Positions 2,450 to 28,241 of a stretch of 64,000 nt of DNA are shown here, piece after piece. A program made the position numbers and the translations under genes. The first letter of the stretch is position 1. Each line of letters begins with the position of its first letter. The stretch covers positions 32,001 through 96,000 of the forward strand of contig CAVWIG010000017.1 in the NCBI GenBank assembly GCA_963754945.1, given 5' to 3'. The notes under the pieces were generated by a model that was not told the origin of the DNA, searched no databases, and was given only the letters and a program-made list of their open reading frames with translations. This DNA is from Methanotrichaceae archaeon (GTDB lineage: Archaea > Halobacteriota > Methanosarcinia > Methanotrichales > Methanotrichaceae).

Positions 2450-5300
2450 TTGCTCAAAGAGTATTCAGCTCACGATATTGAGTCGAAGTGGCAGAAGATC
2501 TGGGAGGATAACAAGGTTTTCCAGGCCGAGCCCGACTCAAGAAAGAAGTTCTTCTTGACCATTCCCTATCCTTATCTCAACGGCAACCTGCACGCCGGAC
2601 ACACAAGGACTTTCACCATCGGCGATGCTGTGGCGCGCTTTCGGCGTATGCGTGGGGAGAACGTCCTCTTCCCCATGGCCTTCCACGCCACCGGGACGCC
2701 AATCGTCGGCCTCTCCGAGCTGATAGTCAACCGCGACCCGTTGATCTGGGGAGTTTACACAAAGCTTCACGGCATACCCGAGGATGAGCTGAAGACTCTG
2801 GACACGCCTGAAAAGATCGTGGTTTATTTCAGGCGCATGGCCAAGGCTGCCATGCAGAGCATCGGCTACTCCATCGACTGGAGGCGGGAGTTCACAACCA
2901 TCGAGCCTGCCTACAGCAAGTTCATTGAGTGGCAGTATGGAATCCTGCGCTGCCTGGACTACATAGTCAAGGGCAGCCATCCGGTGCGCTGGTGTCCTCA
3001 TGACCGAAACCCGGTCGAGGATCACGACATCCTGAAGGGCGAGGACGCCACAATCCTTGATTTTGCCCTGATAAAGTTCAGAGTGGGCGATCAGGTAGTC
3101 CCCTGCGCCACCCTGCGGCCCGAGACGGTCTTCGGAGTGACCAACCTGTGGGTCAATCCTGATGTGAACTACGTCTTGGCCAGGGTCAACGACGAGACCT
3201 GGATTGTTTCCAGAGAGGCCATACGAGAAGCTGACTTTCACCGACCGCCAGGTGGCCTGCGGGATGGAGATCAAAGGATCGGAGCTGATAGGCAAGAAGG
3301 CGACAAACCCGTTGACTGGAACGGAAGTGATCATCCTCCCGGCAAGTTTCGTGGACCCTGACAACGGATCAGGCATAGTCATGTCCGTCCCGGCCCATGC
3401 GCCCTTCGATTACCTGGCACTGAAAGACCTTTATGGTCAAGACCTCCGCAGCTATGGCATCACCGAGGACCTGAGCAAGATCCAGTTCATCTCCCTGATC
3501 GAGTCTCCCGGTTACGGTGAGTTCCCGGCAGTCGAAGCTGTCAACGAAATGGGGGTCAAGGACCAGACCGACCCCAAGGCCGAGGAGGCAACCAAGCTCG
3601 TTTATCGCCGGGAGTTTCACAACGGCGTCCTGAAGGCCAACACTGGCCAGTATGCTGGCCTGGCAGTCAGCAAGATCAAGGACATCTTGCTAGGCGACTT
3701 CATTAAGAACGGGATAGCCGAGATCTTCTACGAGTTCTCAGAGACGCCCGTCATCTGCCGCTGCGGGACGCGCTGCGTTATAATGATGGTGCGGGACCAG
3801 TGGTTCCTGGAGTACTCCGATCCGGAGTGGAAGGCTCAGGTTATGGATTGCCTTTCCAAGATGCGTCTAATTCCTGAAGAGATCCGGGTGGAGTTCGAGA
3901 ACAAGATTGACTGGCTGAAGGACAAGGCCTGTGCCAGAAGGAAGGGCCTCGGCACCCACCTGCCCTGGGACAAGGAGTGGCTGATTGAGTCCCTTGGCGA
4001 CTCGACCATCTACATGTCCTACTACATCCTGGCCAAGTACGTCAACGCCGGGATGAAGATAGATAAGCTGCCGCCGGAGTTCTTCGAGTACATCTTCCTG
4101 AACCACGGGACGGCAGAGAATGTGGCCGATGTCACGGAAATACCTCTGGACACTATCAAGCAGATTCGGAGCGACTTTGCCTACTGGTATCCCGTGGACC
4201 TGCGAACATCGGGAAAGGACCTGATAGCCAACCACCTGCTCTTCTTCCTGTACCACCACGTGGCCGTATTCCCGCAGGAGCTGTGGCCAAAGGCCATGGC
4301 CATCAACGGATTCGTCTCCCTGGAGGGGCAGAAGATGTCCAAGTCCAAGGGGCCGCTGCTCACCCTGAAAGAGGCCGTGGCAGAGAACGGGGCCGACGTC
4401 ACGCGGCTTTACATCCTGGCCAATGCGGAGTACACCCAGGACGTTGACTGGAAAAACGATGGTGTAGCCGCCGCCCGGTCTCAACTGGAGCGGTTCTACA
4501 ACCTAGCCCGAGAGATCATTGAGGACAAGAGCATCAATGAAGGCGCAGAGCTTACCCTCATCGACCGCTGGATGCTCTCCAGGCTGCAGCGCCGCATCGG
4601 CGAAGCGACAGCGGCCATGGATAACATCCAGACCAGGCGGACTCTGCAGAGCGGCTTCTATCTGCTGTTCAACGACCTGCGCTGGTACCAGCGCAGGGGC
4701 GGAAAGAACCAGCTCCGGCGCGTCTTATCGGCTTGGGTCAGGCTGATGGCGCCCTTTACGCCGCACGTCTGCGAGGAGCTTTGGACATACTTGGGAGAAG
4801 GATATGTCTCACTGGCGGCGTGGCCCGAGGCCGACGCTTCCCTAATTGACGAGCAGGCGGAGCAGGCAGAGGAGCTGCTCGAACGCACCTTGAACGACGT
4901 TCAGGAGATCCTGAACGTTACCAGGGCTGCCCCAACAAAGATCACTCTGTACACATCGCCTGCCTGGAAGCAGGAGATGCTGCGCCTGGCCCTGGGCAAG
5001 ACCATAGGTGGCAAGCTGGACATGAGCGCGCTGATGAAGGCGGCCATGGCCAATAAGGCGATTACGCTACACAAGAAGGATGCACCGAAATATGCCCAGA
5101 AGCTGGCCAAGGCAGCGCACTCGCTCGGAGCCGAGGTGCTGAGCCTGGACGAGTTCGAGACTCTGAGCCGGGAGAAGGCATACCTTGAATCTGCACTGGC
5201 CGTTCCTGTGGAGATCTACTCTGCGGATAAGGCTGGGGAGGACCCCAAGGGCAAGAGCAAGCAGGCGGAGCCGGGGAGGCCGGCAATATATATTGAGTGA
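2450..5300 (+). CDS. leuS: Leucyl-tRNA synthetase, archaeal type, with an apparent 1-nt frameshift at ~3220
   Basis: PYPYLNGNLHAGH (HIGH) in ORF 2450..3361; KMSKS and C-terminal PGRPAIYIE in ORF 3204..5300. Removing one base from gaggccatacgag restores ...SREAYEKLTF. Confidence 0.93.
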
Positions 5301-5745
5301 GATGTAACTATCTGTCTTCTATTTTCAATAAATTATTTACGCAAGAAACTATAGAATATTATCATATGCTGACAAAATTGTTCAATATTAGAAATGTTGT
5401 TATAGCAAAAAATGATAATGTCAAAAATATCGAAACCTTCAAATATCTTTGAGACTTTAGAAAAATTGGGGGGATCCTGATTAAGCCAAGGAGCGTGAGA
5501 AAATATGTTACCGGAGCTAGCTCTAATATTCAGGCAAGTCTCGGATGCCTCGATTGCAGCCAGTGTTGTGGCCACCTCGCACAATGGCGATAGAGGTTAT
5601 CTTTCCAGAGACTTCCAGCGGACGTGGTGAAATAATGGCCTTGTCGCCTACGCCACCCCTTACCAGCAAACCGCAACATTCTGTCCCCACAGAACGGGGT
5701 GCTCTTCTGGAGAAATTGCTCCATGAACTTCAGTCTCTTAGAGAA

Positions 5746-8700
5746 ATGAGTATTCTATCGTTAATAGAATTAATGATATTACCTTCAGGCGCGATAGAGA
5801 GCGGTAATCCTGTTATATATGACGCCTATAAGGGGCTGGAGCATTTTGGAGTCGAAGATGCCTGGAATATGGGGTACACAGGCAAGGGTGTAAATGTAGC
5901 TGTAATAGATAGCGGTGTAGATTTCGCTACTCCTGATCTCATAGGTACTCAGGCCCGAGTCTCAAATGCAAGCTCTCCTTACTATGGCTGGCCTATTGTG
6001 ATCGATTTGGATTCACTATCACTTTATCATCAGAAAAGTCCAGAAGGACTCTTTATCCAGAGTCGTTATGCGGATACCACCTCTACAAATACGACGGGCT
6101 TTCAAACAACTGGAACCAGCAAGAGCGGCGTTTACCATATAGGCGATCATCCCGATAGGCATCTTGCTCAGTTCTACGGGCAACCTGTAAAAGTTCTCTT
6201 GGTTGATGAGAAAAGCCCCAATGTATATGATACGGTGTATGTAGATTTGAACAATAATCATGATTTCAGAGATGATAAGCCTTGCAGAAAGGGCGATGAG
6301 GTCTCATACTGGGATAGAGATAAAGATGGCTATCCAGATGAATCGGGAGGCATGATCTACTTTATAGCTGATGGCAAGACGCCTCTGCCCCTATCGAGGA
6401 CGCTCTATGGTGAGAATGCAAAAATACCGAAGAATGGAGAGTTAGTTGCCTTCCAATATGATGATGCCTCACATGGAACTATGTGTGCCGGGATAATAGC
6501 TGCTCAGGGGAAAAATGTCAAGGGCATTGCTCCAGGTGCCAGGATCATACCGGTTCAAAACTCAGTAGCAAGTGATATGCTTCTTTGCCTCCTTGCCTCG
6601 CTTGGCTACGACGGTGTTCCAAATACTGGAGATGAAGCAAACATAATAAGCCGAAGTGGAGGTTTTTCGTACCTTTTCAATAAAGGCGCTGATGAAGGGT
6701 CAACCTTTTTGGAATATCTGACTACTAATATATCTCCAGCTACAACCATCGTATATGCAAATGGAAATGACGGATCAGGATATGGCACTGTTCAGTCTCC
6801 GTCGAGTGAACACGTGAGGGTTTCGATTTAGTGTTGGTTAATGAAGCCTTAAATTCTTGCGTTAATATTTTCAATCTTTATAGTGGTTTTTTAGCATATT
6901 TCACCCCTAAATTGGCTTATTAGATTTCAATTTACCTTGTTGTTTCTAATTTTTGCGCTTTTTTAGAGAGCTTCCGCTAGGCTGTTTGTTTATGCACTAA
7001 ATATTTCAACTGTTCCAGGTTGTAAACGACCGAATTCATCATGAATTTTACTCCAGCTCTTGCGACAGTTGTTACATAAACATGTGCTCCCTTATGCCCC
7101 CGCTTCATAACAGCGAAGCATCTTTCGATGTGCGATCGCGTTTTACTGATTCTCTTATTCCTCAGAAGATCTATGATTCCAAGCTTGTGACCTCTTGTAG
7201 CTTTTTTCATGGCTGCATCATATCCTCGAGTTTTTGCACCATCATATCCCTTATCGGCGTAACGTGGTAGCCCTTCAATTCCAAGATCTACCTGACTATC
7301 GTGTACAGAAGCAGTTGTAGTCTCAAAATATCTGATAAGGTGGTAATTGGTATCGATTGAGATATGACCTTTATATCCGAAAAAGGATTTGACACCCTTT
7401 TTTGCCCAACTTCCCTCATTTATTGGCTCTTCTTCGAGTCTCTGTGGTTTGGCCTTGTCATCAATAATATTATTTGAAATACCAATTAGCTCTTTATCAA
7501 ACTCCTGATTCAGGCTCGTACTGGTGGCTTCGGAATCTTGACCTTCCTTTTTGTCCCCGCCTTGCTCGTCTTTCTTGTTCCTCTTCCGACCTGGGTCCGA
7601 AGTTATGAAGGTTGCATCCTGGATAGTGCCATTCTTTACAGTAAACCCCATCTCATCGAGCTGCCTTTGAAGCTCATTCCAAAGATCATCGTATACGTCG
7701 CACTTAATCAAACGTTCACGGAATAGCCAAACTGTGCTGAAATCAGGAATTACTTCAGTGGTGCCAAGGAAAATACGAAAAGAGATCCTATCCGCAACCT
7801 GTCGCTCCAGTTCTGGATCTGTTAGACCAAACCAATGCTGAATTACGAGAGCTTTCACCATAATCACGATGTCAATGTTCGGACGACCTCCGCGGCTAGT
7901 TTTATTTTTGTATATCAATGGTTCCAAAAATCTGAAACGCTCCCAATTGATCAACGATCCGATCTCGGATAGATCATCTCCGAGGGCTTTTACTCGAGCA
8001 TATTCTGCTCGAATGGCAAAATCAATGAGAGTCCTCATGCATTATATTATAGTATTAATAGTATATAAGTATTTCGATTGATTAGTTTTTCGAAACTCTC
8101 ACGTGATTAATGCAGGTGCGGTCTACGATCTATGGTGGAATAATTCATCCTATAGTGGGGATGTAGTCTCGTTCTCCGCTCGTGGTCCGAACGTACTTGG
8201 GCAGGTCAAACCGAATGTGCTGGCTACTGGTTATCTCGCGCCTAGAGTTCTGCCTTTATGGGAAACTCATAGTGGCAAAACCGCATGGAATGACATGGGT
8301 GGTGGAACCAGCAGCGCGACACCTCACGTTGCCGCGATTATTGCTCTTATTTATCAGGCTTACAAAGATGCTTATGGAAAGTTTCCGACCTCTGAGAAGG
8401 CCAGGAACATTCTCATGTCCTCAGCTACAGATATAGATGAAGAGGTCTTCGCTCAGGGTTCCGGTATAATAAATGCCAAAAGGGCTGTGGAAATTGCATC
8501 CGGAAAAGACGGAGTTTTAGTTGAACCAGCATTGCTCGTCACTTCTCCCGTTGAGGCAGGATCGAACTTGAGGTTTGACTTTACAGTTTCAAATTATTCT
8601 GGCAAGCCGATAAATCTGAAACCCCAAATACTAATAAAAGATAAAACGAAAAACTTAACCTTGAAATCAGGGAACGAGAGTATTTTCTTCACCATTCCGA

Positions 8701-10892
8701 GGGATATGCTCGGCTGCGACCTGTTAAAGGTCTCGTCCTATTATCCAAGAAATAACAGGAGCACAAAGCTGGATAAATATGAGGGGTATGATCTTTACCT
8801 CTACAACTGGAAAGATAGGAATGGCGATGGAAAGGCACAGGAAGGCGAGCTTGAGGCCATAGCCGCATCCCCTGGTGATATGGGTCTTGGATTTACCTCT
8901 GAGGCAAGGATGCACAATCCTGAAGATAGGATGGATGATGGAATCGTGGCTGGCCTGAAAAGGAGAGGCGAAATCAAGAGCAAAGAAATACAAGTAGTAA
9001 TTGAAACTTACAAATGGAAACCATGGAACATCGGAATGAATATCGATGGCAATAATGTCTGCGTTTCAATACTAACGCCTAACACCACAGGAGTACATCA
9101 GGGAAAGATACTCTTGGAATATGGCGGTGAAAGGCAGTGTATCCCTGTATCTTTCTCAACCTATAGACATGATGAGGTTAGAATAAATAATACCGATGAG
9201 ATCTATGAGAATGCCAAGATCTACGGAAGGTTTGAGGCAGAACCGAAATGGTTCTGGGATTCTAGGTTTTATCCGATATACCACCATGGGCACGATTTAG
9301 CAACCATTGAAATTACATGGGAGGACCCGAATACAGATATAGATGCATATCTTTATGGAGAAGATTTTTTCAATACCTCAGAACTCTGGAAATTCTCCGC
9401 AACTAATCCCATAAATCTGCCCCGATTAAAAGTCTTGAGAGAGAATGGGCATAGCATGAGGATATCTGGGATCAGTGTTTTACCTCATGGAGATAGTGGG
9501 GTCGGCGGTAGCTACAGCAATTTTCATACATCTACGGGAAAAAATAGAGAAGTGATAACTGGGGAGCTGGTAGATGGACTGAACCTAATCGTCCTGCATC
9601 AGGTGATCTCTGGAGGCAATAAATACGGAGAGAACGTAACAGTAAATGTCAATGTCGTGCCTTTTAGTCCTATCGATCTCAGAGCAAAAGCTGGAGAAGC
9701 AGTTAGCCTGCAGCCTGCAGGAATAAATGATATAATAGGCTTTTCTGCCTGCGAAGAGGTCAAAGGCGAGGAGTTTGGCTTTAGTCCTAAGGCCTTTCAG
9801 GCGGAGAAAGGAGATGTGATAATGATACGCTCCAACGACTCTGAATATTCGCCACAAATCTTCTTCGATTCAAACAAAAATGGTAAGATGGATTGGGGTG
9901 CAGACATGTACTTTGGATCAAATGATAATAACACGGCGGATAAGCTTATGTTCGCCGAAAAGAGGTATAATGACATCAATCCATCTTATACCGATATAAT
10001 ACCAATCAACGAGAATGGAACGTACTTCCTTTTTGTCATGAATCCTTACGGCCGCCTCGAATTATATCATATGAAGAGCCGATACGAGTGTAATTCCAGT
10101 GTACCAATGAAGATAAAAGTGCCTGAGCAGGTAGGCACGTATCTGGGGGTAGCAGAAAAGAACGGAAATCTCATTCCTGTTCCTGTAAAACTGGTGGTAG
10201 ATGCTGGAGAACCGGCATCTATTCGCCTAGGCGCTAAAAATCGCACCAATTGCAGCTTGCCCTTCAATGTAAAGCTGGAGGTGCAAGACAAATTTAATAA
10301 TCCTGTTGAAGATAACGTTACCGCCACCATTGAGTTCAATAACGCAACGAAGAACGCTGCTCTCATAAAAGGAAGAGGATCGATCAACTTAACAGCGCCT
10401 GAGAAAACAGGGACATACAAGATCAAAGTACAGAGCCGATACGGCATAGCCGAAAACGATATCGAAGTCGCTAATAAAGACCTTATCAAAACAAGTAATG
10501 CAAGCATGAATAGCTTAGGGATTGCAGAGAAGAAAAATGAAACACTTGTGTCGAGGGGAACTGCGCCATTAGAGATGAAAAAAGATTTGCCTAAAAAGGT
10601 TAGATCGGTATCAGTCCTCTCGACTGATGGCAACATTAGCCTCGGCTGGCAGGCTTCAGAGGGTGCTAACCATTACAACGTTTATCACCTTAACAGTATG
10701 GGTATTCAGAATAAAATTGCTGAAGTAAGGAATCCAGGATATACTATGAAAGGGATGCCTTGGACGAGCTATACCTTCAGGATATCTGCCGTGAACAGCG
10801 CAGGAAATGAGAGCGAATTGAGTGATCCTGTGGGAATTGTGGTTACTCCTAAACAGACGGGGCTGAGCCAAATCGAGGGCATCAGGACTTAG
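5746..10892 (+). pseudogene. Large S8 (subtilisin-like) serine peptidase with a C-terminal FN3-like domain, split by IS5; start uncertain
   Basis: Catalytic Asp (VAVIDSG) and His (SHGTMCAG) lie before the IS; Ser (GGTSSATPHVAA) lies after it. Removing the IS and one acgt copy restores EHVINAG in frame. Confidence 0.88.
6816..8100 (-). mobile_element. IS5-family element, copy 1 (1285 bp; transposase 6977..8038)
   Basis: TIRs gagggtttcga...tcgaaactctc, 4-bp TSD acgt, 353-aa DDE transposase (IQDAT, FGYKGH, YADKGY, IERCF). Confidence 0.95.
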
Positions 10893-11068
10893 CCCAGACG
10901 TCAATTTTTGAAGAGATTTTCTATCCATTCCATTAAATCCGGATAGATTCTCCGAGGATGCATATCAACGCTACGTGTCTCGGGAATGATATTTATCATT
11001 GCATATCCCCATCCATCTCTCTATCGATGCATTGCAGTCATCATAGAAATTGCCATTTTTGTTGTTGT

Positions 11069-11236
11069 CCCAAAGGGTTGTCTCCTCGGCAAAGCGTCTT
11101 TCTATGGCTGCTCCAGGTGCGAGCGGGGCCCGATCGGGCAAGCGGGCCCGCCTGGTGGACGGCGATGTTGCCCGGCATCGGAGCGGCTGGACAAAAGCAA
11201 AAACTGCAAGGCAGCAAGCGCGCTGGAAGCGTGAAC
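11069..11236 (+). repeat. Degenerate GC-rich palindromic repeat, copy R1 of the TA-array spacer
   Basis: caaagcgtctttctatggctgctccaggtgcgagcggggcccgatcgggcaagcgggcccgcctgg...cgatgttgcccggcatcggagcg; aligns by eye with 12306-12430 and partly with 13552, 14471 and 15088. Confidence 0.85.
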
Positions 11237-11366
11237 AACTGTGAATGTGTCTAATCCAGGCTATTAATTTTACAGCGAGACGGTTGCATATTATGAATGT
11301 CTCGAAACTTGTCTGCATCTTGGTCTCGAAGCTTTGATCTATCCAAAAGACGTAATTGTATCGCAA

Positions 11367-11663
11367 ATGAATCTTAACGACCTCCTGAAATCAAGGCGTG
11401 ATGAGATCCTTCAAATCGCTGCCAAGCATGGTGCTCACAACGTGCGTGTCTTCGGCTCAGTGGCACGAGGTGACGCAGATTCTCAAAGCGATATAGATCT
11501 CCTGGTTGAGTTCGAACGAGGGACGACTCTGCTGGGACATGCAGCCCTGATACAAGAGCTTGAGGAGCTTTTGGGCGTTAAGGTGGATGTAGTAAGCGAC
11601 CGCGGGCTCCGAGAGCGCGTCAGGGATCGCGTGCTAAAGAGGCGGTGGCACTTTGAGGGATGA
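11367..11663 (+). CDS. MNT nucleotidyltransferase antitoxin (MntA-like); HEPN partner reduced to a few codons
   Basis: VFGSVARG...SDIDLLV motif. A 1-nt shift near the end would give RVLKEAVAL*, overlapped by ttg agg gat gat (MRDD, a typical DUF86/HEPN start) that then breaks off. Confidence 0.85.
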   Translation: MNLNDLLKSRRDEILQIAAKHGAHNVRVFGSVARGDADSQSDIDLLVEFERGTTLLGHAALIQELEELLGVKVDVVSDRGLRERVRDRVLKRRWHFEG

Positions 11664-11740
11664 TCAAGCTGGCGGCGGAGAAAAAGGAGCCCAGCAAAGG
11701 CTGCAAGCATTGACTAGCAAATGAAGATGGCTTCCGGATT

Positions 11741-11956
11741 TTATACGCTTATTTCTACAGAAGCCGCCGTGGTGGTTGGTTCAGGTATGCTTAGAGACTC
11801 GGCCTTCAGACCTTCCAGGTGAAACTCTATTGCCTCTTTCATCAACTCTAGCGTTTCCTTTCTCGTTGGACCGGTGGCAATGACACCGGGCAAATCCGGG
11901 CAATAGGCCGCATAGTTATTTTCAGCCTTTTCAATGATGATCAGATACTCAGTCAT
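11741..11956 (-). CDS. hicB: HicB-family antitoxin
   Basis: YAAYCPDLPGVIATGPT...EAIEFHLE; overlaps the upstream hicA. Confidence 0.88.
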   Translation of the reverse strand: MTEYLIIIEKAENNYAAYCPDLPGVIATGPTRKETLELMKEAIEFHLEGLKAESLSIPEPTTTAASVEISV

Positions 11957-12152
11957 CTTTCCCGATCTCCTTAATACCACTTTGTTTTAATATGCTATTC
12001 AATGTACCCCTTGGTACTTCATCATCCAAATTCCCTGAGATGGTCACCAATCCACTCTTAAAATGGTGCTTGTACTGTCTGTGACTGCCTCTTGTTCTAT
12101 CCAGGAACCATCCATACTCTTCTACCATCTTAATGACGGCTCGAACTTTCAA
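11949..12152 (-). CDS. hicA: HicA-family mRNA interferase toxin
   Basis: GW...RGSHRQYKH...GTLNSILKQSG. Confidence 0.88.
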   Translation of the reverse strand: MKVRAVIKMVEEYGWFLDRTRGSHRQYKHHFKSGLVTISGNLDDEVPRGTLNSILKQSGIKEIGKDD

Positions 12153-12305
12153 TTGTTAGCCTCATTGAGATATTAACCAACCATAAATAAGCCTCTTTAG
12201 ACATATAATTGATTGTCCTTCAGTGCCAATAGGTATTCGCCATTTTGGAAGTCAAGCTCTTCAGAATGAGCAGACACGAACCTCAGCATCCTCCCGGAGG
12301 CTAGG

Positions 12306-12430
12306 CCCAAAGCTGTCCACCTGCCAGAGCGGCCTTTCAGTGGTTGCTCCAGGCGCGTGCGTGGCCCGAACAGGCAAGCGGTCCGCCTGGCGGATGGCGA
12401 TGCTGCCCGGCATCGGAGCGACGGGACCAC
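12306..12430 (+). repeat. TA-array spacer repeat, copy R2
   Basis: cagagcggcctttcagtggttgctccaggcgcgtgcgtggcccgaacaggcaagcggtccgcctggcggatggcgatgctgcccggcatcggagcg; collinear with R1. Confidence 0.85.
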
Positions 12431-12582
12431 GAACGAGACGCGAACCAAAGACGAAGCTCAAGATGCCATCTGACGAGATGAGACGATACGGTAAGAATCT
12501 AACATAAGCTGATTCTGGATCACACCTTACTTATTTAAGTGCAGACCTCGTTCAAATGTAGAGATTATCCCACGGAGAATAT

Positions 12583-12777
12583 ATGGCAGGCATACCTGAC
12601 GAGCAATTCCTAGTCGATGCAGAGGGCAAAAGGAAAGGGGTACTACTATCGATGGAACGCTATGAACAGCTTACTGAGGATCTGCACGATCTTGCTGTTG
12701 TGGCCGAACGTAGAGATGAAGAGACCATAAGTTTCGATGAAATGAGGCAAAGGCTCAAGAAAGATGGCATCCTTTAG
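12583..12777 (+). CDS. Antitoxin of a RelE/ParE-type toxin
   Basis: Small acidic ORF (FLVDAEGKRKGVLLS...EDLHDL...ISFDEM) overlapping the toxin start. Confidence 0.75.
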   Translation: MAGIPDEQFLVDAEGKRKGVLLSMERYEQLTEDLHDLAVVAERRDEETISFDEMRQRLKKDGIL

Positions 12778-13030
12778 CATTGTCTTCAAGCCATCAGCAG
12801 AAAAAGATCTTCGTCGTCTTCCCAGAGATATCGTCCTCCGAGCAATGGAGAAGATCGAAGATCTAAAATCAGACCCATTTCCCAGCCAATCCATCAGGAT
12901 ATCCGGTTCCGAAAGACTTTATCGCTTGCGAGTTGGAGACTACCGGATCATCTACGAAGTTGATTCCAAAGCAAAAGAGATCACCATCCATTACATTCGT
13001 CCCAGAAGCATCGCATATCGCAATCTTTGA
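12764..13030 (+). CDS. relE: RelE/ParE-family toxin
   Basis: FKPSAEKDLRRL...YRLRVGDYRIIYEVD. Confidence 0.88.
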   Translation: MASFSIVFKPSAEKDLRRLPRDIVLRAMEKIEDLKSDPFPSQSIRISGSERLYRLRVGDYRIIYEVDSKAKEITIHYIRPRSIAYRNL

Positions 13031-13091
13031 AGCATGTCTTTGACCATTCAATTGAGTAGTATTATATGCAAATAAGGATGAAGTATTCTCA

Positions 13092-13319
13092 ATGAAGCGC
13101 CTGTATGATTACACGATAGTCCTCCGCCCTGAAGACAATGGCACATTTGTGGCCTACGTCCCTGCCATCCTTGGCTGCCATGCGTGGGGTCAAACTCCAG
13201 AGGAGGCACAGGCGGAGCTGATCAATGTCTTCGAGATGATCCTGGAAGAGTATGAAGAAGAAGGGCGTATGCTTCCAGAGGATATTGATGTGAAGGCTGT
13301 CTATGCCTGCCAAAGCTAA
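13092..13319 (+). CDS. hicB: HicB-family antitoxin
   Basis: FVAYVPAILGCHAWGQTPEEA; overlaps the downstream hicA. Confidence 0.85.
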   Translation: MKRLYDYTIVLRPEDNGTFVAYVPAILGCHAWGQTPEEAQAELINVFEMILEEYEEEGRMLPEDIDVKAVYACQS

Positions 13320-13518
13320 GGACCTGCAGAAGGTGGCCAGTAAACTCGGATTCCAAATGGTGCGGCAGAAGGGCAGCCATGCCAGGTGGAAGCATCCTGA
13401 TGGCCGGGCGACTACTATTCCTATTCACGGCAATAGCGAGATTGGAAACTGGTTATTCTACGAAATTCTAAAGCAGTTAGGCATAACAGAAGAGGATTTC
13501 CGTAGGCTCCTGGAATAA
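13303..13518 (+). CDS. hicA: HicA-family toxin
   Basis: LGFQMVRQKGSHARWKHPDGRATTIPIH...ILKQLGI. Confidence 0.9.
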   Translation: MPAKAKDLQKVASKLGFQMVRQKGSHARWKHPDGRATTIPIHGNSEIGNWLFYEILKQLGITEEDFRRLLE

Positions 13519-13551
13519 GAACGCCCCATCTAACGTCCACCTGCAGTCCAG

Positions 13552-13632
13552 AGCGGGCAAACCCACTCCGACAAAGCGGCTTTTGGTGGCTCTCCAGACG
13601 CGAGCGGGGGCCCGACCGGACAAGCAGCTCAA
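13552..13632 (+). repeat. TA-array spacer repeat, partial copy R3
   Basis: acaaagcggcttttggtggctctccagacgcgagcgggggcccgaccggacaagc aligns with the 5' half of R1/R2. Confidence 0.75.
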
Positions 13633-14003
13633 CATGATCTCACCTGCCAGTCGAAGCGAGCCGGATTCTTAACGAATTCCATGAACTGGCGCAAACCTGC
13701 ACCAGGATCGTCATCGATATTGCTCTCCTCGACTTCAGCCTGAGAGCCGTTATGAATGTGCTTGGGATAGGTCGATGTCGATATTCTTTGCCAATTTACG
13801 TCTGGAAAGTTGTCATGACGGTACATGGTGCCGTCGATATGTCGCCGTTCCCAATGATATGAGAAGCGGCCAGGGACTTTGAGGGAGAACCACACGTCGA
13901 CAAAAGAGCCATCCTTTACGAAAACTCTGAGCTTGCCGCGAAAAATGATGGAATCAGTGGAAAGATCTGCATATTCGATATCGATGATCTTCTTCAGAGC
14001 CAT
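13629..14003 (-). CDS. DUF6516/TumE-like toxin
   Basis: FSYHWE...MYRHDNFPD...YPKHIHNG motif; lies downstream of a small helical partner gene. Confidence 0.7.
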   Translation of the reverse strand: MALKKIIDIEYADLSTDSIIFRGKLRVFVKDGSFVDVWFSLKVPGRFSYHWERRHIDGTMYRHDNFPDVNWQRISTSTYPKHIHNGSQAEVEESNIDDDPGAGLRQFMEFVKNPARFDWQVRSC

Positions 14004-14011
14004 TAGGTCTA

Positions 14012-14308
14012 TTACTGTTGCGGAAGGCTCTTCATTGCCGCTAATAGTTCATCTCTCCTGGCTTCCAGGTAGTCAAGCTCCTGGAAATCATCGAGAATAT
14101 CCTCCTCTAGGACTTCACCCTTCTTCAGCTTATCGTCCAGCTCGAAGATAGACCTCACGCCATGCCTTGCGCCAATCTTGAATATTTCTGCCTCAATGCA
14201 TCTCAGCTCTTTCTCCAGAAAGGTCTTGATGCTTGCCCGAGCCAGTAGATCACGATCCATCTTTAGGGTGCTTGCAACCTCATCGATAACTTCCATGACC
14301 GGATCCAT
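14012..14308 (-). CDS. Putative antitoxin partner of the DUF6516 gene (TumA-like)
   Basis: Acidic helical 98-aa ORF (KIGARHGVRSIFELDDKL...DFQELDYLE) directly upstream of the DUF6516 gene. Confidence 0.6.
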   Translation of the reverse strand: MDPVMEVIDEVASTLKMDRDLLARASIKTFLEKELRCIEAEIFKIGARHGVRSIFELDDKLKKGEVLEEDILDDFQELDYLEARRDELLAAMKSLPQQ

Positions 14309-14470
14309 CTTATTTGCTAACGTGTACGGCTAACGTGTACGTAATACATCCCGATGATATTTCAATCCTCTTATTCAGTTAGTCGGGCCTTGCCTTTTAA
14401 TTCCGTGGTCTACCTAGCTCCCATTTCGTGCACCAGGATGTAGATATGTCCCCGGGCCCCTTTCCGATGT

Positions 14471-14550
14471 GGCAACACACCCCACAAAGTGGCATTTAGG
14501 TGGTTGTCTAAGATCAAGAGTGGCCAGATCGGGCAAGCGGGCCCGCCCAG
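14471..14550 (+). repeat. TA-array spacer repeat, partial copy R4
   Basis: cacaaagtggcatttaggtggttg...ggccagatcgggcaagcgggcccgcc; gatcgggcaagcgggcccgcc is shared exactly with R1. Confidence 0.75.
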
Positions 14551-14656
14551 CTAGAAAAGCCTCTCCTCTGTATGTTTCTCTTATGGTTCTTGGAGCATTT
14601 CTGTCAAGGCGTCCTTTGAAATTCCATTCCGGATGGATACATCGGATAAGATGTCG

Positions 14657-14827
14657 TTAAATGTGCCCTTCCAGCTCATCGTGCAATGGAACGGTGATGT
14701 TGTGGTCTCCTGCTTCGGTTGTCTTTCTCAGCCTGACGTGACTTCCCCGCTGCCGGATGATCTCGTATCCTAATCGGCTCAGCACTTTGATGAGCTTCTC
14801 ACCGCTAGCAACCGGATGCTTTCGCAA
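14657..14827 (-). CDS. hicA: HicA-family toxin, C-terminally truncated
   Basis: LGYEIIRQRGSHVRLRK...ITVPLHDEL; the final helix is missing. Confidence 0.75.
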   Translation of the reverse strand: MRKHPVASGEKLIKVLSRLGYEIIRQRGSHVRLRKTTEAGDHNITVPLHDELEGHI

Positions 14828-15029
14828 GAGGCTGCACCTCAACCTCAGAAATAGACAGAATCTTTAACTCTTCGCCGGCTTCAAGGAACTCTTCGAAGTG
14901 CAGGCTAGTTGCTTCTTTTATATTTTCCATCAGCTCATCGAGGGTCTTACCTTGCGTAAAGATGCTGACACCTATTCCACGAGCGCACCAATATTCACCA
15001 TCAAAATAGATCTCGAATTTCACCAGCAC
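14805..15029 (-). CDS. hicB: HicB-family antitoxin
   Basis: YWCARGIGVSIFTQGKTLDELMENIKEATSLHFE. Confidence 0.82.
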   Translation of the reverse strand: MLVKFEIYFDGEYWCARGIGVSIFTQGKTLDELMENIKEATSLHFEEFLEAGEELKILSISEVEVQPLAKASGC

Positions 15030-15087
15030 CTTATCACCGTTTCAACTACTGTTTATGCTAACGCTAATATTTCTATGTTCCTGGAGA

Positions 15088-15135
15088 GAAAGCGAGCTTT
15101 GAGAGCTTCACGCTGCGGCGGGGCCACGAGCGAGA
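15088..15135 (+). repeat. TA-array spacer repeat, highly degenerate copy R5
   Basis: aaagcgagctttgagagcttcacgctgcggcggggccacgagcg resembles R1 aaagcgtctttc...gtgcgagcggggcccgatcg. Confidence 0.45.
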
Positions 15136-15216
15136 GCCAAGTCTTCCAGACTGTTAGAGCGCATGCAGGCTCTTTTAAGCGAAGGGATTTATCCTGGCAA
15201 TGATAATATTCAAGCG

Positions 15217-15474
15217 ATGTTTGCGGAATACATCCAGGCAGCAATGGACAAGGCCACCTATGAGATCATCGATGACCCTGAACCCTTTTATGGCGAGGTT
15301 CCCGAGCTGCAGGGCATATGGGCAACCGGCAAAACCCTGGAAGAATGCCGCAAGGAACTCCAGAGCGTCATAGAGGGCTGGATAGCATTGAAACTGAGAT
15401 TGGGGCATCCAATACCTCCTATCGGCGGCCATGTCATTAACGTGTCTGCAGAGCCGGTTTCCATTGTCGAATAA
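15217..15474 (+). CDS. hicB: HicB-family antitoxin
   Basis: MFAEYIQAAM...FYGEVPELQGIWATGKTLEECRKEL. Confidence 0.88.
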   Translation: MFAEYIQAAMDKATYEIIDDPEPFYGEVPELQGIWATGKTLEECRKELQSVIEGWIALKLRLGHPIPPIGGHVINVSAEPVSIVE

Positions 15475-15686
15475 GCTCTTGCCAGTTTCGAGACGTGAGC
15501 TATCAGGCGATTAAGCAAATTGGGTTTTGTGGGTCCTTATCCCGGTGCCGATCATGAATATGTGTCGCGGGGTCTTGTAGAGGCACGCATTCCAAATCCT
15601 CACGGAAGCGATATCAGCATAGATCTTTTGCAAAGAATTCTAAAGAGAGCGGAATCAGTTGTGAGGAATGGTTTGATGTTTCATAG
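15464..15686 (+). pseudogene. hicA: HicA-family toxin with two apparent frameshifts
   Basis: Manual translation: MSNKLLPVSRREL/RRLSKLGFVGPYPGADHEYV...IPNPHGSDISIDLLQRILKRA/ISCEEW. Confidence 0.75.
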
Positions 15687-15849
15687 ACCGTAATTTTGCA
15701 CCGAAAATTTCAGACCAGCGTGTGTCGACGGCTGATCAGATTGGCTGCCGGCACCTGGCCCGATCGTCCTTGACATTGAGCGATTCTTGGAACTGAAGAG
15801 GCCCGTTTGGCAATAGTGCAACGGTTAGGAAAAGTATCCTATGAATGGA

Positions 15850-16015
15850 TGATGGCCTTCCGAGGTAAAGCCATCCTTCATGGCATACAGGAAAGAGCAT
15901 CATCCTTTACCCAATGCACTTTTCTTTCACAACTTCTGGATCGATTCCAACATGTCTTCATGAGGGTCCATTCTCAGGACGAAGACCCTCCCCAAACTGC
16001 CCCTGAGTACTGCAT
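15850..16015 (-). pseudogene. N-terminal relic of a DUF296/PPC-domain protein
   Basis: Manual translation MQYS/GSLGRVFVLRMDPHEDMLESIQKL* with a frameshift and a stop. Confidence 0.5.
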
Positions 16016-16029
16016 AATAACTCCACATC

Positions 16030-16452
16030 TCACCCATTTTCTGCGATCTCGCCCGCCGCACTTTTAATTCGCTTTTCCAAAAAACACCTTTTCCATTTTC
16101 CTGTCATAGGCTTACCGCACCTTCCCTCGAATAGATAGACCTGATCAGGTAGGGATTCCAGATAACTCTCCAGCTCGGCCATTACTTTCGGCGAGATTTT
16201 TTTCTTCTCTCCCGTGGATCGAATTAGGATTGTTCCCACCTCAAGGTCGACATCCGATATCTTAGTTCCAATCAGATCCTCAACCTTGAGGCCTGAATCA
16301 AGGAGAAGCATAAGCATTATCCTGTCCAGTCCTGAAGAGGAGGCCAGTAATATCTTCTTCTCCTGCTCGGACAGACTTTCGAGGGAATCCACAATGAATA
16401 GTTGAATCGATGGAATATCAATGGATCGAGAGGTGATTACAGGGTTTTCCAT
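16030..16452 (-). CDS. Short tyrosine-recombinase-like protein lacking catalytic residues
   Basis: DRIMLMLLLDSGLKVEDLI...DVDL resembles Box I (TGLRxxEL) with R changed to K; YLF...GKP follows, but the ORF ends before HxxR and the Tyr nucleophile. Confidence 0.65.
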   Translation of the reverse strand: MENPVITSRSIDIPSIQLFIVDSLESLSEQEKKILLASSSGLDRIMLMLLLDSGLKVEDLIGTKISDVDLEVGTILIRSTGEKKKISPKVMAELESYLESLPDQVYLFEGRCGKPMTGKWKRCFLEKRIKSAAGEIAENG

Positions 16453-16576
16453 TAGGAGGATTTCATCAGTCGAGTGAAAGGCTTATAAATAGGAACTGCT
16501 AGACTGGGCACTGTAGACAAATGACGATAAAATGCCTACAGCCTAAATAGCGAGAAGAGATAATGGAGGTTAATAG

Positions 16577-17377
16577 TTGAGCAAGAAATATTACGTTCTC
16601 TCCTTACTACTCGTGTTCATCATCACTGCAGGACTATCCTTAGCCAAGAGTCCAGATAACAATACGAGTAAGATCGTCGAGAACAAAACGGCACCTTTGA
16701 GCTTGGAGAAACCCACGGCCAACCTGGGCAATAACAGCTCTAATGTCGCCAACGCCAGCGCTCCAGCCGTTCCAAAGAACAATGCTTCTGAGACTGCAAA
16801 GGCAGCTTCCGAAATTGCCAAGATGAAGGGCATCTGGTCCATAGCTGGAATAAAGGAGGAGCAGATTACCATGGCGCTTCAACAGGATGGCGGAGATCTC
16901 TTCGGGCAAGCCAAGTACGAGCCTCAAGCAGGGGCTGCCTGGAATGCGGTTGCCACTGGATCAGTTAACGGTGATAACGTGGCTCTGGTTATAACCTATC
17001 CAGAGGGAAAAGAGCAGGTATCAGAAAGGTTAAATGGAACTTTTGCCAACGATGCCTTCAGCGGCAAGTTCTTCGAGGTTAGCAAGGGAATCATATCTCT
17101 TCGTGGTAATTTCACCGCCACATCGATTAGCCCAGAAATAACTGACTATACACCGGCAACAGTGACTGCACCAGCGGTTACCCAGTCCACGACGGCTCCA
17201 GGAACCCCTAGTGTGTCAGCAACAGGCACCACGACTCCAGTGGCTGCCGTAAACACGACGGCGACACAGAAACCTACCACTGTGGGTGGAAGACAGAAGC
17301 CCGTCGATGTGCATGAGTGGGCGGACAAGATAGGCCCAGGCGGCGATCTGAGCGGCGTTCCACCTGGAATGGGTTAA
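16577..17377 (+). CDS. Secreted hypothetical protein with a Thr/Ala/Pro-rich linker
   Basis: Signal peptide, many NxS/T sequons, ggagg RBS upstream. Confidence 0.75.
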   Translation: MSKKYYVLSLLLVFIITAGLSLAKSPDNNTSKIVENKTAPLSLEKPTANLGNNSSNVANASAPAVPKNNASETAKAASEIAKMKGIWSIAGIKEEQITMALQQDGGDLFGQAKYEPQAGAAWNAVATGSVNGDNVALVITYPEGKEQVSERLNGTFANDAFSGKFFEVSKGIISLRGNFTATSISPEITDYTPATVTAPAVTQSTTAPGTPSVSATGTTTPVAAVNTTATQKPTTVGGRQKPVDVHEWADKIGPGGDLSGVPPGMG

Positions 17378-20157: not shown

Positions 20158-21442
20158 GAGGGTTTCGATTTAGTGTTGGTTAATGAAGCCTTAAATTCTT
20201 GCGTTAATATTTTCAATCTTTATAGTGGTTTTTTAGCATATTTCACCCCTAAATTGGCTTATTAGATTTCAATTTACCTTGTTGTTTCTAATTTTTGCGC
20301 TTTTTTAGAGAGCTTCCGCTAGGCTGTTTGTTTATGCACTAAATATTTCAACTGTTCCAGGTTGTAAACGACCGAATTCATCATGAATTTTACTCCAGCT
20401 CTTGCGACAGTTGTTACATAAACATGTGCTCCCTTATGCCCCCGCTTCATAACAGCGAAGCATCTTTCGATGTGCGATCGCGTTTTACTGATTCTCTTAT
20501 TCCTCAGAAGATCTATGATTCCAAGCTTGTGACCTCTTGTAGCTTTTTTCATGGCTGCATCATATCCTCGAGTTTTTGCACCATCATATCCCTTATCGGC
20601 GTAACGTGGTAGCCCTTCAATTCCAAGATCTACCTGACTATCGTGTACAGAAGCAGTTGTAGTCTCAAAATATCTGATAAGGTGGTAATTGGTATCGATT
20701 GAGATATGACCTTTATATCCGAAAAAGGATTTGACACCCTTTTTTGCCCAACTTCCCTCATTTATTGGCTCTTCTTCGAGTCTCTGTGGTTTGGCCTTGT
20801 CATCAATAATATTATTTGAAATACCAATTAGCTCTTTATCAAACTCCTGATTCAGGCTCGTACTGGTGGCTTCGGAATCTTGACCTTCCTTTTTGTCCCC
20901 GCCTTGCTCGTCTTTCTTGTTCCTCTTCCGACCTGGGTCCGAAGTTATGAAGGTTGCATCCTGGATAGTGCCATTCTTTACAGTAAACCCCATCTCATCG
21001 AGCTGCCTTTGAAGCTCATTCCAAAGATCATCGTATACGTCGCACTTAATCAAACGTTCACGGAATAGCCAAACTGTGCTGAAATCAGGAATTACTTCAG
21101 TGGTGCCAAGGAAAATACGAAAAGAGATCCTATCCGCAACCTGTCGCTCCAGTTCTGGATCTGTTAGACCAAACCAATGCTGAATTACGAGAGCTTTCAC
21201 CATAATCACGATGTCAATGTTCGGACGACCTCCGCGGCTAGTTTTATTTTTGTATATCAATGGTTCCAAAAATCTGAAACGCTCCCAATTGATCAACGAT
21301 CCGATCTCGGATAGATCATCTCCGAGGGCTTTTACTCGAGCATATTCTGCTCGAATGGCAAAATCAATGAGAGTCCTCATGCATTATATTATAGTATTAA
21401 TAGTATATAAGTATTTCGATTGATTAGTTTTTCGAAACTCTC
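20158..21442 (-). mobile_element. IS5-family element, copy 2 (transposase 20319..21380), inserted in a small ORF starting at 20059
   Basis: Same 1285-bp sequence and protein as copy 1; flanks ctat|...|atag show no 4-bp TSD. Confidence 0.95.
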
Positions 21443-26586: not shown

Positions 26587-28241
26587 CTACCTGATTACCT
26601 CTACATCTGACGACCGAGCCACCTTGATCTCCTTCTTCCCGTTGAATTCAGAGAGCGTTCCCGTGATCCTGACATGATCACCGGAGTGAACCCTGGCCTG
26701 GATATCCTTCGCACCAGATCCGCTTGGCACGAATATGGAATTGTTTGTAGTGTCCAGATGGAAGACGAGGTTGCCGCCTGTTTTGGTAGTTGTCATGCCC
26801 AGGACATGACCATCCACCGAGGTGGAAGAATCCGATTTCCCAGCGACTGTACTCTGATCAGAGCTGCCAAAAGTCCAATCTGCCACTGCCAGCGATCCCA
26901 GTGCCATGAGGAGCAATACAACTACGGAGAGTTTCGAAAAACTAATCAATCGAAATACTTATATACTATTAATACTATAATATAATGCATGAGGACTCTC
27001 ATTGATTTTGCCATTCGAGCAGAATATGCTCGAGTAAAAGCCCTCGGAGATGATCTATCCGAGATCGGATCGTTGATCAATTGGGAGCGTTTCAGATTTT
27101 TGGAACCATTGATATACAAAAATAAAACTAGCCGCGGAGGTCGTCCGAACATTGACATCGTGATTATGGTGAAAGCTCTCGTAATTCAGCATTGGTTTGG
27201 TCTAACAGATCCAGAACTGGAGCGACAGGTTGCGGATAGGATCTCTTTTCGTATTTTCCTTGGCACCACTGAAGTAATTCCTGATTTCAGCACAGTTTGG
27301 CTATTCCGTGAACGTTTGATTAAGTGCGACGTATACGATGATCTTTGGAATGAGCTTCAAAGGCAGCTCGATGAGATGGGGTTTACTGTAAAGAATGGCA
27401 CTATCCAGGATGCAACCTTCATAACTTCGGACCCAGGTCGGAAGAGGAACAAGAAAGACGAGCAAGGCGGGGACAAAAAGGAAGGTCAAGATTCCGAAGC
27501 CACCAGTACGAGCCTGAATCAGGAGTTTGATAAAGAGCTAATTGGTATTTCAAATAATATTATTGATGACAAGGCCAAACCACAGAGACTCGAAGAAGAG
27601 CCAATAAATGAGGGAAGTTGGGCAAAAAAGGGTGTCAAATCCTTTTTCGGATATAAAGGTCATATCTCAATCGATACCAATTACCACCTTATCAGATATT
27701 TTGAGACTACAACTGCTTCTGTACACGATAGTCAGGTAGATCTTGGAATTGAAGGGCTACCACGTTACGCCGATAAGGGATATGATGGTGCAAAAACTCG
27801 AGGATATGATGCAGCCATGAAAAAAGCTACAAGAGGTCACAAGCTTGGAATCATAGATCTTCTGAGGAATAAGAGAATCAGTAAAACGCGATCGCACATC
27901 GAAAGATGCTTCGCTGTTATGAAGCGGGGGCATAAGGGAGCACATGTTTATGTAACAACTGTCGCAAGAGCTGGAGTAAAATTCATGATGAATTCGGTCG
28001 TTTACAACCTGGAACAGTTGAAATATTTAGTGCATAAACAAACAGCCTAGCGGAAGCTCTCTAAAAAAGCGCAAAAATTAGAAACAACAAGGTAAATTGA
28101 AATCTAATAAGCCAATTTAGGGGTGAAATATGCTAAAAAACCACTATAAAGATTGAAAATATTAACGCAAGAATTTAAGGCTTCATTAACCAACACTAAA
28201 TCGAAACCCTCTACGATCTTCTCTTCTTTCTGCATCCGCAT
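26587..28241 (-). pseudogene. Membrane-anchored OB-fold protein interrupted by IS5 copy 3
   Basis: MRMQKEEKIV (28241) rejoins VVLLLMALG...GDHVRITGTLSEFNGKKEI. Confidence 0.75.
26927..28211 (+). mobile_element. IS5-family element, copy 3 (transposase 26989..28050)
   Basis: Same element in the opposite orientation; 4-bp TSD tacg. Confidence 0.95.

Follow-up and report, generated by a model that had tools for sequence, protein, structure and literature searches.

The stretch of DNA described here (the window: 64,000 nt, positions 32,001-96,000 of the forward strand of contig CAVWIG010000017.1, Methanotrichaceae archaeon assembly GCA_963754945.1) harbors a toxin-antitoxin (TA) island whose modules are punctuated by copies of a direct repeat. 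On balance, and without great assurance, we read it as a hypervariable, cassette-like island in which crossover at the repeat core adds, removes and rearranges whole TA modules. The repeat forms a family that is linked to TA genes and uniform in orientation, module orders are permuted among relatives, and one crossover lies within the core. An earlier reading of the sequence alone (the original prediction) had proposed a repeat-delimited locus of cassette capture or shuffling. Its shuffling part is supported by the permuted orders and the crossover within the core; several module boundaries carry no significant repeat, and capture by a dedicated enzyme is unsupported.

The Repeat Family and Its Link to TA Genes

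Copies of the repeat were called by repeat finding in the window, by nhmmer against the whole assembly (G000; 2.97 Mb, 87.7% complete, 48% GC) and by cmsearch with a covariance model. The sites in the island are the following:

11062-11250, + strand: R1, long form with a shortened 5' end (nhmmer E=2e-49; cmsearch 11067-11159, 69 bits)
12260-12508, + strand: R2, long form of at least 250 nt (nhmmer E=9e-50; homology to the copy on contig C1 across 12260-12508)
13519-13632, + strand: R3, 5' part only, abutting the TumE stop codon (nhmmer E=3e-15; cmsearch 57.6 bits)
14431-14558, + strand: R4, short form (nhmmer E=1.7e-22; cmsearch 67.6 bits)
15105-15138, + strand: core-like remnant ("R5") at the junction of modules C and D (nhmmer E=2, 1.0 bit; not significant as a repeat copy)

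R1-R4 all lie on the + strand, as the original prediction had claimed for the repeat at large, with E-values of 3e-15 to 9e-50 against the whole assembly and start-to-start spacings of 1236, 1246, and 913 nt. Two further sites of that prediction did not hold as repeat copies: R5 is not significant, and an R1-tail-like piece at ~11680 was not detected. Both nevertheless match breakpoints between genomes. The repeat is ~110-250 nt long with a conserved core of ~25 nt, and a 3' extension of ~80 nt is present in R1, R2, the C1 copy and one copy of G001, a genome of the same genus. G001 also carries an orthologous copy of R1 upstream of its MNT gene. The GC content of the copies is 58-64%, against 47% for the modules.

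The assembly contains five copies, four in the island and the fifth at the extreme end of contig C1; beyond these five, the best nhmmer match has E=2.2. This fifth copy runs off the contig end (1-4253 examined), and its neighbors encode DUF362, a CAP12/Pycsar-type TIR-domain protein, DUF4145 and DUF4268. The neighborhood looks like a defence island rather than a set of TA genes.

Among 105 Methanotrichaceae genomes (16 genera), a second-generation model based on R2 finds 26 copies in 13 genomes and 3 genera, with at most five copies per genome. Profile and covariance models were needed for this count, as a plain BLAST-type DNA search with R2 recovered the repeat in 0 of 40 relatives. Five contigs carry two to four copies each; orientation is uniform in all five, the 10 non-first copies agreeing without exception. 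TA genes directly adjoin 20 of the 26 copies (HicA/HicB, TumE, MNT, RelE/ParE, DUF4258/MqsA-like or DUF5615). Four of the eight HicA loci of G000 are outside the island and the repeat is on none of their contigs, so that it belongs to the island and not to HicAB as such.

The original prediction had named, as an outcome that would speak against it, a repeat scattered genome-wide with no link to TA genes. The low copy numbers and the 20 copies beside TA genes differ from this. A dispersed miniature inverted-repeat transposable element (MITE) or repetitive extragenic palindrome (REP) is ruled out by the limit of five copies per genome, by the chance-only core matches elsewhere, and by the ends of R2, where no target-site duplication is seen. 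A 22-mer of the core has only chance matches in the genome (8 loci) and metagenome (5 loci) collections, each match reaching just 22-37 nt, and two core patterns gave 0 matches in a viral contig collection. At the R2 ends there is a doubtful terminal inverted match of 10 of 12 positions, read by eye.

Module Order Among Relatives

Profile searches with Pfam bear out the predicted content of the 4.6-kb stretch: the window holds only TA genes at 11.0-15.7 kb, in seven modules. From left to right their genes are:

11334-11663, + strand: MNT-type nucleotidyltransferase antitoxin (PF01909 E=6.9e-15; NF047752 MntA 43 bits, under its cut-off)
11652-11723, + strand: HepT/HEPN toxin stump (homology to the G001 gene stops at ~11673)
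11741-12152, - strand: module A, hicA 11949-12152 and hicB 11741-11980 (PF07927 E=1e-17; PF15919 E=1.7e-9)
12583-13030, + strand: relB-like antitoxin 12583-12777 and ParE/RelE toxin 12764-13030 (PF18506 24 bits, sub-cut-off; PF05016 E=6.8e-11)
13092-13518, + strand: module B, hicB 13092-13319 and hicA 13303-13518 (PF15919 E=4.8e-6; PF07927 E=3.4e-20)
13629-14308, - strand: TumE toxin 13629-14003 and a 98-aa upstream open reading frame (ORF) 14012-14308 (PF20126 E=5.2e-11)
14657-15029, - strand: module C, hicA 14657-14842 and hicB 14805-15029 (PF07927 E=1.7e-11; PF15919 25.5 bits, just sub-cut-off)
15163-15693, + strand: module D, UPF0150-type hicB 15163-15474 and degenerate hicA ~15480-15693 (PF21748 E=6.9e-34)

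A fixed module order, with breakpoints away from the repeats, had been the other outcome named as contrary to the prediction; the orders differ in G001, G002, G113 and environmental contigs. In G001 the order is leuS, a second leuS 3' end, a hicB fragment, one repeat, MNT, intact HepT, module D and the short integrase-like gene described below; ~3.4 kb of the modules of G000 are absent. G002 shows A, repeat, C, B, repeat; G113, from another genus, D, C, repeat, Tum, repeat, repeat; and G074 repeat, hicBA, repeat, a DUF4258/MqsA-like pair, repeat. The environmental comparison used assembled Logan contigs only (no raw reads), in which uncovered parts carry no meaning; runs X2, X4, and X17 hold relatives that are ~88-99% identical and not necessarily the strain of G000. 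All three runs break at 11740. In X17 module C is joined to B, and in contigs of X2 and X4 repeat-like sequence follows the end of B. No shared block differs in its strand relative to the repeat.

The crossover was mapped at the A-C boundary of G002, where a single repeat joins flanks that in G000 hold R2, relBE, B, R3, Tum, and R4 between them. In a three-way alignment, this copy resembles R2 and its flank on the left (67-100% identity; 22-59% to R4) and R4 and its flank on the right (82-89% identity; 33-48% to R2). The switch from R2 to R4 is located within the conserved core. A second informative boundary is the junction of C and D: homology to G002 extends to 15138 and homology to G001 starts from 15115, leaving an overlap of ~22 nt that is common to G000, G001, and G002 and resembles the repeat core. 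To the left of A, G002 carries a 35-nt fragment of the repeat 5' end (E=0.019).

A Proposed Model of Excision and Re-insertion

In the favored reading, two same-facing repeats would recombine to release a circle carrying one hybrid repeat and one or more modules. The repeat of the circle could then recombine with any resident copy, giving re-insertion. Both steps would keep repeats and modules on their original strand and both would yield hybrid repeats. Uniform orientation, kept module strand, hybrid repeats and permuted orders are thus all expected if circles are excised and re-inserted between direct copies. Within this scheme the circular intermediate and the enzyme are the parts that we infer. 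Copies that are 54-71% identical would suit two kinds of agent, recombination through short homology at the core and a site-specific enzyme whose gene is elsewhere. As the arrays have no accompanying recombinase gene, we put the host's own recombination or repair, working on the short core, slightly ahead of a dedicated and unlinked site-specific recombinase.

Several observations weigh against this model. No significant repeat is found at three boundaries (the HEPN stump and A, 11673-11691; parE and B, near 13043; C and B in G002), which reflects either rearrangement without a repeat or a repeat that has decayed. A single crossover is mapped at good resolution. The compared genomes are related and their islands may be orthologous, so that the counts do not represent independent events. 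The assembled Logan contigs, which cannot reveal rare forms, show neither an excision circle nor a deletion joint at any repeat. Identity among the repeat copies is just 54-71% across the core region and their longest exact matches span 6-21 nt, so that present-day copies would recombine inefficiently by the classical homologous route. Finally, six of the 26 copies have no identified TA neighbor (those on contig C1 of G000, G001:C29 and G113:C168, and those of G107, G099, and G094, for which only the two nearest ORFs were scanned).

Alternative Explanations

The repeat may instead be the site of a dedicated site-specific system, att-like in its architecture, with the recombinase encoded elsewhere and the TA modules as true cassettes, comparable to those of integrons or to the dif modules of Acinetobacter. 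We regard this as a serious contender, although an unlikely one. A crossover within the most conserved part of otherwise divergent copies is what would be seen for att sites that share only their core, and uniform orientation in all five clusters is in keeping with it. The core contains an inverted repeat with arms of 7-8 bp and a conserved 10-nt spacer, perfect in R1 and in the A-C copy of G002 (by eye on the alignment). This argument is weakened by the remaining copies, in which the arms are imperfect, and by the junctions that have no site. Covariation lends the hairpin weak support, since 3 of 500 shuffles reach the score observed on eight copies.

The search for a recombinase gives a mixed picture. 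Elsewhere in its genome, G000 has seven candidates for action in trans, open frames 290-323 aa long that match PF00589 over nearly its full length. However, no recombinase gene is linked to any array: PF00589 has no match on the array contigs of G113, G074, G043, and G002. G043 (99% complete) has two repeat copies but just two weak Phage_integrase (PF00589) matches, at or below the cut-off and both with stop codons. An archaeon is normally expected to carry XerA.

The only integrase-like gene next to the island is at its right edge:

15855-16001, - strand: remnant of a PCC-domain gene (tblastn with three PCC proteins: residues 6-54 of ~148, 43-45% identity, E 9e-8 to 4e-7)
16030-16452, - strand: short integrase-like gene ("mini-integrase"), 140 aa (PF00589 31 bits, profile positions 17-106 of 172)

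Of the tyrosine-recombinase catalytic domain, the mini-integrase has just the N-terminal half; the C-terminal catalytic half is missing. Against the XerA model it matches positions 94-192 of 263 (52.5 bits, cut-off 220), and against the integron integrase model TIGR02249 it scores 17.9 bits. Its short form is conserved: a database search confined to proteins of 77-245 aa returned 43 relatives of 82-143 aa, describing a family of short proteins of ~110-150 aa. The gene occurs in 42 of the 105 genomes (once in 39, twice in 3), mostly as short open frames. At all 18 loci outside this genus, no homologue of the TA or flank proteins of the window is nearby, and in the five other loci that were checked it is followed each time by a PCC-domain (PF03479) gene. 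This conserved pairing, together with the PCC remnant, identifies the mini-integrase as a chromosomal flank gene whose PCC partner was truncated by the island. The conserved short form, the PCC pairing and the non-TA contexts elsewhere rule it out as island machinery.

A related and rather speculative proposal, which we consider doubtful, is that the repeat marks a new archaeal cassette system, attC-like without sequence relation to attC and served by an unlinked, possibly non-tyrosine recombinase. Equally doubtful is the corollary that TA modules, and perhaps also defence modules, would be moved by such a system through excision and insertion, both within a Methanotrichaceae genome and from one to another.

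Less credible, and in our estimate improbable, is that the repeats are passive, either as relics of insertions with long target duplication or as a small non-autonomous element landing in TA islands, the shuffling being due to illegitimate recombination. A classic case of such duplication is seen at the same island in G001, where the leuS 3' end is duplicated (189/226 identical) around a 378-bp insert, which shows that duplicative insertion takes place there. According to PMC2853133, such a class is known for addiction modules for which no enzyme has been identified. The copies in non-TA contexts and the junctions without a repeat also agree with passive repeats. However, target duplication predicts near-identical flanking copies, whereas identity between R2 and R4 in the core region is 64%, and the "empty" site of G002 is a hybrid of R2 on the left and R4 on the right and not the parent of both. 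A mobile element is disfavored by its apparent lack of a target-site duplication and the doubtful terminal inverted match, as well as by the uniform facing of the copies in every cluster, which would be unexpected.

A role for the repeat between TA operons, as a gene for a structured RNA or as a cis-regulatory element (for example, an insulator or terminator), is very improbable. The high GC content kept in all copies would suit such a role, and the hairpin test on eight copies is weakly positive: 82.8% of the cells of the proposed stem are paired, against 77.4% in shuffles, a value reached by 8 of 500 shuffles. Here the hairpins of the original prediction find their limited support. Folding gives z-scores of -1.5 to +0.9 relative to shuffled sequence, that is, no extra stability. 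The consensus structure of the eight copies reaches -4.3 kcal/mol, and RNAalifold finds no consensus structure and no pairs on 17 copies. A scan of 10500-16600 with Rfam at E<=1 returned two sub-threshold snoRNA-like matches, both outside the repeats, and neither the position nor the strand of the repeat is constant with respect to the adjoining genes. Two other origins were rejected. ARAGORN found 0 tRNAs in the window, which removes an origin from a tRNA or at a tRNA attachment site. A coding remnant is excluded by ORFs across R1, R2, and the C1 copy that shift frame between copies (by eye); two antisense ORFs have no NCBIfam match.

The negligible chance of a canonical integron, or of a cluster of attC sites lacking integron integrases (CALIN), rests on a similar layout of same-facing repeats ~1 kb apart, on the frequency of TA cassettes in integrons and on the attC clusters reported in archaeal genomes (PMC9668308), all of which is outweighed by a repeat longer than attC sites, by 0 pairs of R'' (RYYYAAC) and R' (GTTRRRY) cores 40-130 nt apart on both strands of 10900-15800 (mean 0.73 in 300 block shuffles), and by a best TIGR02249 score in the assembly (87.7% complete) of 53.9 bits against a cut-off of 265. 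GTTRRRY does not occur in R1-R4. The original prediction had likewise held the locus not to be a canonical integron, and the identification of the neighboring integrase as a flank gene agrees with this.

Composition of the Modules

Their two-gene layout and Pfam membership (HicAB, RelBE/ParE, MNT-HEPN, TumE) characterize the modules as type II/VII TA modules. There are three exceptions to the complete layout: HepT is truncated, hicA of module D is degenerate and the partner of TumE belongs to no recognized family. The truncation of HepT had been predicted as a HEPN stump. It is confirmed by G001, which at this position contains an intact HepT-like ORF of 111 aa (PF01934 E=4e-27). One contig of run X4 continues beyond 11669 into differing sequence that, by eye, reads as the start of HepT. 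The 98-aa ORF upstream of TumE (14012-14308, - strand) has no Pfam or NCBIfam match and is a putative antitoxin, on account of its position alone.

The four HicA paralogues share ~30% identity among themselves, as do the four HicB paralogues; because of this divergence the four HicAB pairs are not tandem duplicates, in agreement with the original prediction. In module D, hicA scores 22.8 bits, under the family cut-off, and from the sequence read by eye the G000 gene appears to be frameshifted near its start. G074 holds an intact homologue (HicA E=2.8e-8). The gene is damaged differently in congeners: the G001 copy (G001:C42, 6278-6484) is shortened, and window positions 15576-15965 have no counterpart there. 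The hicB gene of the module is kept in both G000 and G001, with ~96% protein identity.

The Chromosomal Flanks

In this genus the island is located between leuS and the conserved pair of mini-integrase and PCC genes. On the left, leuS (window 2451-5300) is represented by a 698-aa ORF starting at 3204, with the N-terminal ~250 codons in another frame, whereas the gene of G001 is intact (949 aa). The break near 3200 in this essential gene is either a frameshift or an artifact of assembly. G001 has two copies of the final ~226 bp of leuS (G001:C42, 3247-3467 and 3845-4065), and the insert between them contains a 59-aa ORF with no Pfam match; G000 has a single leuS 3' end (window 5083-5303). This duplication, at the left edge of the island, fits an insertion with long target duplication.

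Three copies of an IS5-type transposase gene (DUF772 and DDE_Tnp_1, with the same Pfam results) are found at 6977-8038 (- strand), 20319-21380 (- strand), and 26989-28050 (+ strand). A subtilase gene is interrupted by the first of these, its two parts lying at 5545-6831 and 8103-10892. The subtilase gene is uninterrupted in G005 and absent at this locus in G001.

Comparison with Known Systems

The island resembles the sedentary chromosomal integron arrays, such as those with Vibrio VCR repeats, and the attC clusters of archaea (PMC9668308) in that small modules, often TA pairs, lie between same-facing repeats ~1 kb apart. As in integron arrays, module order varies among relatives while strand relative to the repeat is kept. 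In contrast to these, the island contains no attC R''/R' cores, no integron integrase and no attI; its repeat, at 110-250 nt, does not fold significantly better than shuffled sequence; and its modules occur on either strand, presumably with their own promoters. An attC site forms a single-strand hairpin with extrahelical bases; the island repeat contains an imperfect stem, with the limited pairing support given above.

The dif modules of Acinetobacter plasmids are also discrete units, TA pairs included, that are shuffled between short sites (the XerC/D pdif sites); they use a host-encoded recombinase, which is the arrangement that an att-like repeat with an unlinked enzyme would require. The pdif sites are 28 bp long, with 11-bp arms and a 6-bp spacer, and alternate in orientation. 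The repeat of the island differs in being much longer, always direct, chromosomal and archaeal, and the XerA-like gene next to the island is a conserved gene of the flank in truncated form. The Xer/dif core has two inverted arms of ~11 bp and a spacer of ~6 bp, compared with 7-8 bp and 10 nt, by eye, in the core of the island repeat. Xer/dif core sites have been sought with arms of 11-15 bp and spacers of 4-10 bp (PMC2958812).

Insertion with long target duplication has been described for restriction-modification units, which are flanked by direct repeats of >30 bp and were recognized by comparing filled and empty sites (PMC2853133). The island shares with this class the small selfish modules flanked by long direct repeats and the lack of a mobility gene, and the leuS duplication of G001 fits it. 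In that class, however, the repeats are copies of a unique local target, whereas a single repeat family is found here in 13 genomes and on several contigs; identity among the flanking copies reaches only 54-71%, and a hybrid repeat occupies the empty site.

Significance

TA modules move between genomes and pile up in islands. To our knowledge, the movement of small TA units that carry no mobility gene is largely unexplained outside integrons, plasmids and transposons. A limited literature search found no description of such a repeat in Methanotrichaceae, nor of a TA island punctuated in this way. The locus offers a handle on TA module movement in an abundant group of methanogens, with a low-copy boundary repeat in one orientation, present in three genera, and a mapped crossover. 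If no enzyme acts on the repeat, the island would be a clean natural example of the modular shuffling of addiction modules driven by short homology. If an enzyme does act on it, the locus would belong to a new archaeal cassette system, and a cassette system with an unlinked recombinase would, if true, amount to a second, independent invention of the integron principle.

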